From NCBI RefSeq assembly GCF_030013205.1, contig NZ_CP122648.1: 64,000 bases of DNA. The stretch is one strand, 5' to 3'. Below are positions 44,001-47,000 of this stretch, piece by piece. A program made the position numbers. Numbering within the stretch: the stretch's first letter is position 1; the number at the start of each line of letters is the position of its first letter. Source of the DNA: Escherichia coli. Lineage in GTDB: Bacteria > Pseudomonadota > Gammaproteobacteria > Enterobacterales > Enterobacteriaceae.

Positions 44001-47000
44001 CGTTGTTGTCATTTGTTTTACAAAAGCAAGGGATTAAATCTCCTCCAATGGACAAAAAAATGAATAATGACAATACCGATTACGTGAGTAATGAATCAGG
44101 GACGCTTTCGCGATTATTTAAACTACCTCAGCATGGGACCACCGTCCGCACAGAATTGATTGCGGGGATGACCACTTTTTTAACCATGGTGTACATCGTT
44201 TTTGTGAACCCGCAAATCCTCGGCGCGGCACAAATGGACCCGAAAGTGGTGTTTGTTACCACCTGTTTGATTGCCGGTATCGGCAGTATTGCGATGGGGA
44301 TATTTGCTAACTTACCCGTGGCGCTGGCTCCGGCAATGGGGCTGAACGCCTTCTTTGCGTTCGTGGTCGTGGGGGCGATAGGTATCTCCTGGCAGACCGG
44401 GATGGGCGCGATATTCTGGGGCGCAATTGGGCTATTTTTGCTCACGCTGTTTCGTATCCGTTACTGGATGATCTCCAACATTCCATTAAGTTTACGTATT
44501 GGTATCACCAGCGGAATCGGATTATTTATTGCCTTAATGGGATTAAAAAACACTGGCGTTATTGTCGCCAATAAAGACACCCTGGTGATGATTGGCGATT
44601 TAAGTTCTCACGGCGTGTTGTTAGGTATTTTAGGGTTTTTTATTATAACCGTGTTGTCATCACGTCATTTTCATGCCGCGGTGCTGGTTTCTATTGTGGT
44701 GACGTCTTGCTGTGGCTTATTTTTCGGTGATGTTCATTTTAGCGGTGTCTATTCCATTCCGCCTGATATTAGCGGCGTCATTGGTGAAGTAGATTTGAGC
44801 GGCGCGTTAACACTTGAACTCGCCGGTATCATTTTCTCCTTTATGCTGATCAACCTATTTGATTCATCAGGAACATTAATTGGTGTAACTGATAAAGCTG
44901 GCTTAATAGATAGTAACGGTCAATTCCCCAATATGAATAAGGCGCTGTATGTTGATAGCGTCAGTTCGGTGGCAGGCGCATTTATTGGTACCTCATCTGT
45001 TACTGCCTATATTGAAAGTACTTCTGGTGTGGCGGTCGGTGGTCGCACGGGGCTGACTGCGGTTGTGGTCGGCGTTATGTTCCTGTTGGTTATGTTCTTC
45101 TCACCGCTGGTGGCGATGGTTCCTCCTTACGCAACCGCCGGAGCGTTAATCTTTGTTGGCGTGCTGATGACCTCAAGTCTGGCGCGCGTTAACTGGGATG
45201 ATTTTACCGAATCGGTGCCTGCGTTTATTACCACGGTGATGATGCCCTTTACTTTCTCGATCACCGAAGGGATTGCACTTGGCTTTATGTCGTACTGCAT
45301 CATGAAAGTATGCACCGGGCGCTGGCGCGATCTGAACCTGTGTGTGGTGGTGGTCGCAGCTCTGTTTGCACTGAAGATTATTCTGGTGGATTAGTAACTG
45401 GCGAGGGTTTCCAGATATCATGAGTTCTGATTACGCAGGAGAACTCATGATCTGGATAATGCTCGCCACGATGGCGGTAGTGTTTGTGGTTGGTTTTCGG
45501 GTGCTGACATCCGGGGCCAGAAAAGCGATTCGCCGTCTCAGCGATCGGCTGAATATCGATGTCGTACCCGTGGAGTCGATGGTCGATCAAATGGGAAAGT
45601 CAGCCGGTGACGAATTTTTACGTTATTTGCATCGCCCGGATGAGTCGCACCTGCAAAACGCCGCGCAGGTGTTGCTCATCTGGCAAATTGTCATTGTCGA
45701 TGGTAGCGAACAGAACCTGCTGCAATGGCATCGGATTTTACAAAAAGCCCGCCTTGCCGCTCCCATTACCGATGCTCAGGTCAGGCTGGCGCTGGGTTTT
45801 CTGCGCGAAACCGAACCTGAAATGCAGGATATTAATGCTTTTCAGATGCGCTATAACGCGTTCTTTCAGCCTGCCGAGGGCGTTCACTGGCTGCATTAAA
45901 ACCGCTTCGTCTTATCAGCCTACAGACCGCGCCTGACCTGTAGGGTGGATAAGGCGTTCACGCCGCATCCGGTATCGGAACTGATAGTAGGTGAACGCAT
46001 TATCTACGTTCTATTTACAGCAGCACCTCCAGCCCGTGTTTTTGCACAATGCTGAGCAGTTTTAATGAAATGCCATTGGGGCGTTTAGCGCCACTTTCCC
46101 ATTTTTGTACAGTTGAAACGCTGGTATTGAGATAGTGAGCGAAGACGGGCTGACTCACTTTTAATTTTTCCCGCAGTGCTTTTATCTCAACAGGTTGTAA
46201 GTCTTGCACGCTGGTCAGGCAGGCTTTGTCAAAAGTACGCATCGTTTCGGCAGAAATAGCATTGACGCTGGACAATCCAGCCGCTGCGCTGTGAATAGCC
46301 TCAAATGCAGGACTTTTAAATTTAGTTTTTGCAGTCATAGCAGATCTCTGTCAGTTCTTTAGTGTTAATCATTGCTGTTAGTTGGGCTTTCGTCAGGAAG
46401 GCATAATGCTTTGCAATTTCACGAAACCCAGCCAGTTCCTGACTATTGATGTTCGACATATCCTGTTTTGCATATAAAAACGTGTAAAACCAATTGCTTC
46501 CCCCTTTTGCCAGAATAATTGCACGCTCACGATTTTGGTGAAGGCGCTTTTTAAAAACGCCACCGCCAAGTGCATCAGCTTTACCTTGTTCCGTTTCTAA
46601 AATGGTACGGCACAACTCTTCATCTGTTATTGCATGAGACCTGGCTTCCCTTGCAAACCATTTGGTTTTAAACACGCGCATATCGTTGAGATCCTGTTAT
46701 TAAAGTATATCACCAAGTGCAATACTTTATCCCTTGTTCCCAACACAATCGCGAAAATACATATCACCTTGCCCTATGATTTTTATTTCTTCGAGCAGCC
46801 TCGAACTTTTCCCACAACACCGTAAAATTTGCAAAAACGTTAAATGCGTCACACATTTCAATGTTAAAGTGGTCGGCTTTTCCCCTGAAACATGCCACGG
46901 GTAACACCATGAGTGAATTTATTGCCGAAAACCGCGGCGCGGATGTCATCACCCGACCGAACTGGTCAGCCGTATTCTCGGTGGCGTTTTGCGTCGCCTG

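Follow-up and report, generated by a model that had tools for sequence, protein, structure and literature searches.

A predicted chromosomal toxin-antitoxin operon of the HigBA2/ToxP kind between yicN and nepI of Escherichia coli, apparently ancestral at this site and lost from K-12-type strains

The subject of this analysis is a pair of small genes lying between yicN and nepI in a 64,000-nucleotide stretch of an Escherichia coli chromosome (RefSeq assembly GCF_030013205.1, contig NZ_CP122648.1), which is referred to below, at its full length, as the window. A preliminary description made from the sequence alone had read these genes as an overlapping toxin-antitoxin pair, with the toxin gene first, encoding proteins of 119 and 107 amino acids (aa), and the list of open reading frames (ORFs) gave exactly these two, both on the minus strand and overlapping by 17 nucleotides (nt). 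RefSeq annotation was read from the chromosome of E. coli K_EC180 (NZ_CP062203.1), which matches the window (window position = record position + 1), and in which the two genes are labelled 'type II toxin-antitoxin system RelE/ParE family toxin' and 'helix-turn-helix domain-containing protein'. The features of the pair itself are the following.

46322-46681, minus strand: toxin gene, 119 aa from an ATG start, encoding a RelE-fold protein of the HigB2/ToxP type (Pfam PF06296), a predicted ribosome-dependent mRNA endonuclease.
46015-46338, minus strand: antitoxin gene, 107 aa from an ATG start, encoding an N-terminal segment (residues ~1-45) and a C-terminal XRE-type helix-turn-helix (HTH) domain (residues ~49-101).
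46322-46338, minus strand: 17 nt shared by the 3' end of the toxin gene and the beginning of the antitoxin gene, from the ORF coordinates.
46692-46695, minus strand: Shine-Dalgarno sequence AGGA, seen in the sequence 10 nt upstream of the toxin ATG.

The 17-nt overlap is also present in the Citrobacter, Salmonella and Dickeya loci, and it suggests that translation of the toxin and the antitoxin may be coupled. RefSeq takes as the toxin start a GTG that lies two codons further downstream than the ATG, which yields a protein of 117 aa, and does so in all alleles examined. The 119-aa reading is the better one, because the ATG and the AGGA Shine-Dalgarno sequence are kept across genera, toxin residues R2, K5 and T6 are invariant in the family alignment, and the match to the Pfam model begins at residue 1; an ACAGGAT motif is conserved as well. 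The cassette has a G+C content of 43%, compared with 49.5% for the window. On the nepI side, nepI in its longest reading runs from 46861 (410 aa), and RefSeq begins it at 46909 (394 aa).

The preliminary description had assigned the 119-aa protein to the HigB-2 type within the RelE/ParE superfamily, and the family match, the fold and the conservation of active-site residues all bore this out. In a profile search, which the same description had suggested, the toxin matched Pfam PF06296 (RelE) from end to end, with residues 1-113 aligned to model positions 1-120 (E=4.2e-41, 140 bits), and PF06296 was carried by all 120 toxin homologues among the matches listed. Vibrio cholerae HigB2, whose sequence as used here was checked against PDB 5JA9, also fell into PF06296 in the Pfam scan, weakly (34 bits, model positions 8-96 of 120), and it is placed in that family by Gerdes' 2025 survey as well (PMC11980606). 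An assignment of V. cholerae HigB2 to PF09907 was rejected on the strength of these two sources. When an AlphaFold model of the toxin (predicted local distance difference test, pLDDT, 88) was searched against the PDB with Foldseek, the ten best hits were all HigB2.

The active site was compared in a MAFFT alignment of eight divergent family members that included V. cholerae HigB2 (VcHigB2) and ToxP, the homologous toxin of Coxiella burnetii. The published active-site residues of VcHigB2, K49, R51, R64, Y82 and K84 (PMC5416850; PMC10098735), correspond to residues of the toxin as follows.

VcHigB2 K49, toxin K44: invariant in 8 of 8 members.
VcHigB2 R51, toxin R46: invariant in 8 of 8 members.
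VcHigB2 R64, toxin R53: invariant in 8 of 8 members.
VcHigB2 K84, toxin K72: invariant in 8 of 8 members.
VcHigB2 Y82, toxin Y70: Y or F within the family.

In the toxin, strand beta2 carries K44 and R46, the start of beta3 carries R53, and the end of beta4 carries Y70 and K72. A protein with a RelE fold might still act as a ParE-like gyrase poison or through some other non-RNase activity, but we give this explanation next to no weight, because the Lys/Arg/Tyr catalytic set of HigB2 is conserved in the toxin and the homologue ToxP acts as an inhibitor of cell-free translation (PMC10098735).

Two cysteines of the toxin, C24 (46610-46612) and C114 (46340-46342), vary hardly at all within the family. 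Both are exchanged in Salmonella (for S and R), in the family member P0065 (R and T) and in ToxP (K and L), while C24 alone is lost in the members P0063 and P0090; the two may form a contact or redox pair between helix alpha2 and the C-terminal strand.

For the 107-aa protein the preliminary description had noted a C-terminal XRE-type HTH as in HigA-2, with which both sequence and fold agree. Pfam returned HTH_3 (E=1.2e-7) together with a weak MqsA_antitoxin match, and phmmer aligned residues 46-102 to HigA-2 of PDB 5jaa with 24 of 57 positions identical (E=7.9e-10). The AlphaFold2 (AF2) model of the antitoxin (pLDDT 81.5) had VcHigA2 as all of its top eight Foldseek matches in the PDB, at 39-41% identity. 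Mean column identity in the antitoxin family alignment is 81%, and conservation is also high in the N-terminal ~45 residues, which we infer to be a putative toxin-binding segment. These residues form a separate module in the AF2 model (predicted template modelling score 0.51, with a dip in pLDDT at residues 41-50) and were modelled as strand-helix-helix-strand and not as disorder, whereas the neutralising segment of HigA2 is disordered and folds on binding.

Upstream of the toxin gene, two further features were read on the sequence.

46701-46729: predicted operator, formed by two inverted 13-nt arms around a 3-nt spacer; minus-strand sequence TAAAGTATTGCAC TTG GTGATATACTTTA.
46704-46712, minus strand: putative extended -10 element TGATATACT (TGnTATACT), inside the right arm of the operator, read from the sequence.

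Placed 20 nt ahead of the toxin ATG, the inverted repeat is the sole well-conserved block in the otherwise divergent upstream regions of six genera. In almost every one of 50 loci its core, TAGCAC-N3-GTGCTATA, precedes the start codon by ~20 nt (17-25); it is kept even where the toxin is at 32-38% identity, as in Thiohalobacter, Burkholderia and Desulfobulbaceae, and also upstream of Coxiella toxP, so that it can now be proposed as the operator motif for the whole enterobacterial/ToxP subfamily. The equivalent of the -10 element, GTGCTATAcT/gT, is likewise conserved in relatives, and no second copy of the operator motif was found within the 64-kb window. Since a strict consensus scan for promoters and terminators found no sites, the promoter proposal rests on the reading of the sequence and on conservation.

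Gene anatomy, family, fold, conservation of the catalytic residues, and conservation of the gene pair and its operator across genera together make it very likely, in our judgement, that the pair is a chromosomal type II toxin-antitoxin operon of the HigBA2 or ToxP-AntitoxP kind. Its toxicity, RNA cleavage, neutralisation and DNA binding would follow by analogy with V. cholerae HigBA2 and Coxiella ToxP/AntitoxP, relatives for which growth arrest through ribosome-dependent cleavage of mRNA, and rescue by the antitoxin, have been demonstrated (PMC5416850; PMC10098735). In the mechanism that we propose, one extended -10 promoter would drive transcription of the toxin gene and then the antitoxin gene, with translation of both coupled through the 17-nt overlap. 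The 119-aa RelE-fold toxin would enter the ribosomal A site and cleave mRNA under translation by means of its Lys/Arg/Tyr active site (K44/R46, R53 and Y70/K72), and the 107-aa antitoxin would neutralise it through the conserved N-terminal ~45 residues. An antitoxin dimer would, in addition, bind through the C-terminal HTH domain to the one inverted repeat (46701-46729), which spans the -10 element, and thereby repress the operon. The pair is already known, being annotated in RefSeq as a toxin-antitoxin system and belonging to a structurally and biochemically characterised family, and for these reasons it holds little novelty.

The distribution of the cassette speaks to its age at this site. 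It was found in 1716 of 5426 complete E. coli genomes, always on the chromosome and always in single copy, and at the nepI/yicN site in 1715 of these 1716, while 68% of complete E. coli genomes are without it. The preliminary description was right that the cassette is absent from K-12, as BLAST of the locus of the K-12-derived strain J53 against the window gave the following correspondence.

45975-46814: 840-base-pair (bp) segment, replaced by 41 bp in J53.
46579-46597: part of the toxin gene retained as a remnant in the 41-bp K-12 filler, 17 of 19 positions identical, in the same orientation.

The score of the remnant was matched by 2 of 2000 shuffles and by 4 of 2000 random 41-mers from the window. 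Of the partial matches listed from 5403 genomes, nearly all have a span of 1202 bp (2001-840+41), and because almost all of the listed cassette-free genomes show this same span they share one allele.

The same description had called the cassette inserted, and this claim was not supported. Three species of Citrobacter (C. koseri, C. freundii and C. amalonaticus) and two of Klebsiella (K. indica and K. michiganensis) have the pair between nepI and yicN, as do two divergent Escherichia genomes that are separate species in GTDB; it adjoins nepI/yicN in four genera. Antitoxins of E. coli and Citrobacter are 84% identical, with a nonsynonymous divergence (dN) of 0.09-0.10, alongside 83-87% for yicN and 88-89% for nepI, so that the antitoxin has diverged as much as the flanking core genes. 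Conserved synteny, this flank-like divergence and the 17/19 toxin-gene remnant argue that the K-12-type allele is a deletion, which left its breakpoint at 45974/45975, with K-12 homology resuming at 46815. Judged from these genome comparisons, the pair is an old, vertically inherited resident beside nepI in the Enterobacteriaceae genera examined, and was lost in K-12-type lineages. With the module ancestral and lost there, K-12 offers a natural cassette-free host in which the pair could be tested; beyond correct bookkeeping, the finding matters little.

The antitoxin gene stands beside the toxin gene, in the same order, in 41 of 44 loci of other species. On long time scales the family is mobile, since the pair adjoins pabA-argD instead in Pectobacterium, Dickeya, Samsonia and Pseudescherichia, and 181 plasmid records, chiefly of rhizobia and Coxiella, carry homologues; a Klebsiella aerogenes plasmid, LR134132.1, is an example of a plasmid with such a homologue. 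Two candidates were set aside during the survey: the copy in HS-02 (NZ_CP172818.1, 2950-3700; 77% identical), considered as a divergent allele, is an assembly artefact with homopolymer runs of T, C and G, and contig P0005, considered as a possible Escherichia outgroup, turned out to be of E. coli type. The cassette was also met on the 1075-bp contig JAIJJM010000942.1 of a 'Collinsella sp.' metagenome-assembled genome, at 97-99% protein identity and with a yicN 3' end that is 100% identical over 34 aa; this contig is E. coli DNA binned into an actinobacterial genome.

Several observations weigh against reading the pair as a functional operon of the HigBA2/ToxP kind. By direct comparison the toxin has only marginal sequence similarity to VcHigB2: a BLASTP alignment of 35 residues reached E=0.002, the probability from hhalign with HigB2 as a single sequence was 5%, and searches with the toxin sequence or with a 30-sequence toxin profile gave no PDB match. 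With direct sequence searches failing, the link between the toxin and HigB2 rests on the Pfam profile, on the fold and on the Coxiella homologue as a bridge. None of the NCBIfam models matches the toxin, and the antitoxin stays below their cut-offs, matching only through its HTH part (41.3 against 60 bits for NadS, NF041265, and 41.0 against 61.8 bits for the MqsA family, TIGR03830). In HigB2 and ToxP the beta2-beta3 loop is longer by 6 residues than in the toxin, whose C-terminal helix and strand, ~20 residues in all, are missing from HigB2 while present in ToxP. The palindrome is not perfect in E. coli, where 9 of 11 positions pair. Literature searches on yicN with toxin-antitoxin, on NadS and on the protein accessions found no experimental work on this E. 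coli pair. Finally, the dN of the E. coli toxin is about twice that of the antitoxin, and related E. coli alleles have lost the toxin start codon, its reading frame or the whole cassette, so that selection for toxin activity in this species may be weak.

The extent of these losses was followed in ten E. coli alleles, the window allele included. The antitoxin was intact and nearly identical in all ten, as was the operator, which was identical throughout, but the toxin start (46679-46681) was changed from ATG to ATA in four, those of O157:H7 F6321, O145 RM9872, strain 222 and M160133, the last of which (one allele of the ten) is also frameshifted in the toxin gene. Seven of the 29 cassette matches listed align 3 nt short, consistent with the same start-codon change, and frameshifted toxin variants of 79-95 aa are present in the protein database. 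Such a pattern could mean that the locus is a decaying remnant, in which the toxin is attenuated or inert in E. coli and which is kept mainly for the antitoxin as a transcription or anti-addiction factor. The absence of the cassette from most complete genomes and the faster change of the toxin would fit, as would Pectobacterium polonicum, in which toxin decay has left an orphan antitoxin (81% identical) beside a 27-aa toxin remnant, and the plasmid-borne homologues, which would be possible targets of an anti-addiction antitoxin. We nevertheless hold this explanation to be improbable, because the window allele keeps the toxin ATG, the Shine-Dalgarno sequence, an intact ORF and all family-invariant and catalytic residues, and because the two largest clusters of E. 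coli toxin proteins (493 and 905 members) are full length. The ratio of nonsynonymous to synonymous divergence (dN/dS) was 0.03-0.11 for both genes between genera wherever the synonymous term could be estimated, values that are only rough because dS is saturated at this distance, and for the toxin it was ~0.06-0.11 between species, which points to long-term purifying selection.

A related proposal, to which we grant a slightly better though still small chance, is that the E. coli module has been caught part-way through a lineage-specific silencing of the toxin, with the antitoxin kept for a function of its own; three states, the ATA start, the frameshift and the deletion of the cassette, would then coexist within the species while antitoxin and operator stay essentially invariant. 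If this were true, candidate roles for the antitoxin would be the neutralisation of plasmid-borne ToxP-like toxins (anti-addiction) or the regulation of the divergent nepI gene. The natural alleles that have lost the start codon, among them that of the O157:H7 strain examined, provide material for asking whether chromosomal toxins of such modules are under selection.

We return to the reading favoured here, that of a toxin-antitoxin operon, and to the suggestion of the preliminary description that it is associated with phage defence, for which no support was found. Were abortive infection its main role, shut-off of transcription by a phage would deplete a labile antitoxin and free the toxin. 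RelE/ParE-superfamily modules have been discussed as defence toxins (PMC11980606), a homologue in Verminephrobacter aporrectodeae lies beside variable SIR2 and HATPase/NB-ARC-like genes, and the antitoxin matches the uncharacterised phage protein family phrog_2104 (E=1e-26). Even so, the chance that defence is its main role appears very slim, as the toxin matches none of the families in PADLOC-DB, where the antitoxin has generic HTH matches only (RmrA, HTH_VI), and as the genes directly flanking the pair in E. coli, Citrobacter and Salmonella are conserved ones for transport and metabolism and do not form a defence island. The search of a phage collection returned no true phage, the sole 'phage' record carrying the toxin being a mislabelled Salmonella chromosome contig, and the stable vertical inheritance of the pair at one site is unlike the usual turnover of defence islands. 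The variable slot in V. aporrectodeae, which holds either a 1220-aa SIR2_2 protein or HATPase_c_3 and NB-ARC-like proteins, looks like a defence hot spot.

On the yicN side the cassette is bounded by the repetitive extragenic palindromic (REP) element that the preliminary description had reported.

45939-45972 and 45991-46007 (region 45939-46008): REP element and its degenerate inverted half, between the convergent yicN and antitoxin genes.

The REP sequence at 45947-45972 recurs at 6118-6143 in the window, where no repeat is expected by chance, and is paired with the degenerate inverted copy; the K-12 deletion has its breakpoint between these halves. Rfam recognised a REP-derived naRNA4 at 45943-46008 (31 bits, E=0.0034), below its gathering score, and the RNA fold of the region has a z of -3.0. 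The hairpin is probably a shared terminator or mRNA stabiliser for the convergent yicN and antitoxin transcripts. On the other side, position 46815 lies 94 nt before the nepI start codon, and because K-12 homology resumes there, cassette-bearing and cassette-free strains differ in the DNA more than 94 nt upstream of nepI, which could alter nepI regulation.

Beyond nepI, a ~14-kb strain-specific island separates nepI from yicS (window 48294-62000). It carries air/eaeX, encoding an inverse autotransporter adhesin, and eilA, encoding a HilA-family regulator, both frameshifted, and type III secretion translocon and chaperone genes like those for IpaD/SipD, YopB/SseC and SycD. Since nepI directly adjoins yicS at the HS-02 locus, nepI is flanked by variable DNA on both sides. 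Elsewhere in the window, two hypothetical proteins of 431 and 485 aa, neither of which matches PADLOC, are encoded at 33837-36843 between ilvN and uhpA, genes that we take to be adjacent in K-12, and the type I toxin gene tisB, unrelated to the pair, is annotated at ~30733-30822.

Among known systems, RelBE and HigBA (YgjN/YgjM) of E. coli K-12 share the RelE/ParE superfamily fold, and their toxins are ribosome-dependent mRNases. The ortholog in Salmonella Typhimurium is STM3777-STM3778, whose toxin is 68% and whose antitoxin is 80% identical to those of the window; it lies beside nepI in the same position and orientation, but yicN is not on its other side, and both toxin cysteines are replaced (S24, R114). 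It has been listed as a RelE-superfamily toxin-antitoxin module (PMC3868539, retracted; PMC4070546), and we found no reliable functional data on it, the sole overexpression test being that of the retracted paper, PMC3868539.

V. cholerae HigB-2/HigA-2 (PDB 5JAA, 5JA8 and 8A0X) shares PF06296, the gene order and the active-site residues with the window pair and is the best structural match of both proteins, with HTH domains that are ~40% identical. Its operator is a single inverted repeat over the -10 element (PMC11006873), and the window repeat likewise lies over a putative -10 element, although the sequences differ, TGTACGC-N5-GCGTACA in V. cholerae against TAGCAC-N3-GTGCTA here. The toxins are only ~20% identical, and HigB2 ends without the C-terminal ~20 residues of the window toxin. 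The antitoxin's N-terminus has no detectable sequence similarity to the neutralising segment of HigA2, and the residues with which HigA2 contacts bases, R68, E71, N72 and R77 (PMC11006873), align in our own reading of the alignment to S75, Q78, K79 and A84.

The closest experimentally tested relative is ToxP/AntitoxP (CBUA0028/CBUA0027) of the Coxiella burnetii plasmid QpH1, also a toxin-first operon. ToxP is toxic and is rescued by AntitoxP; the toxP promoter is bound by AntitoxP on its own and also by the complex of AntitoxP and toxin (PMC10098735). ToxP shares 30% identity with the window toxin from end to end, also through the C-terminal helix and strand (E=1e-17), and the antitoxins are 55% identical over 104 aa with the N-terminal segment included (E=4e-37). 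The K79E change, which abolished the toxicity of ToxP (PMC10098735), affects the same lysine as K72 of the window toxin, and the inverted repeats ~20 nt upstream of the start codons read TTCAC TTA GTGAT in Coxiella and TGCAC TTG GTGAT in the window. The two systems differ in that ToxP has a long Gly/Lys-rich beta2-beta3 loop and lacks the conserved cysteines C24 and C114, and in that the toxP and antitoxP genes overlap by 4 nt instead of 17. Whereas ToxP/AntitoxP is plasmid-borne and acts in plasmid maintenance, the window pair is chromosomal.

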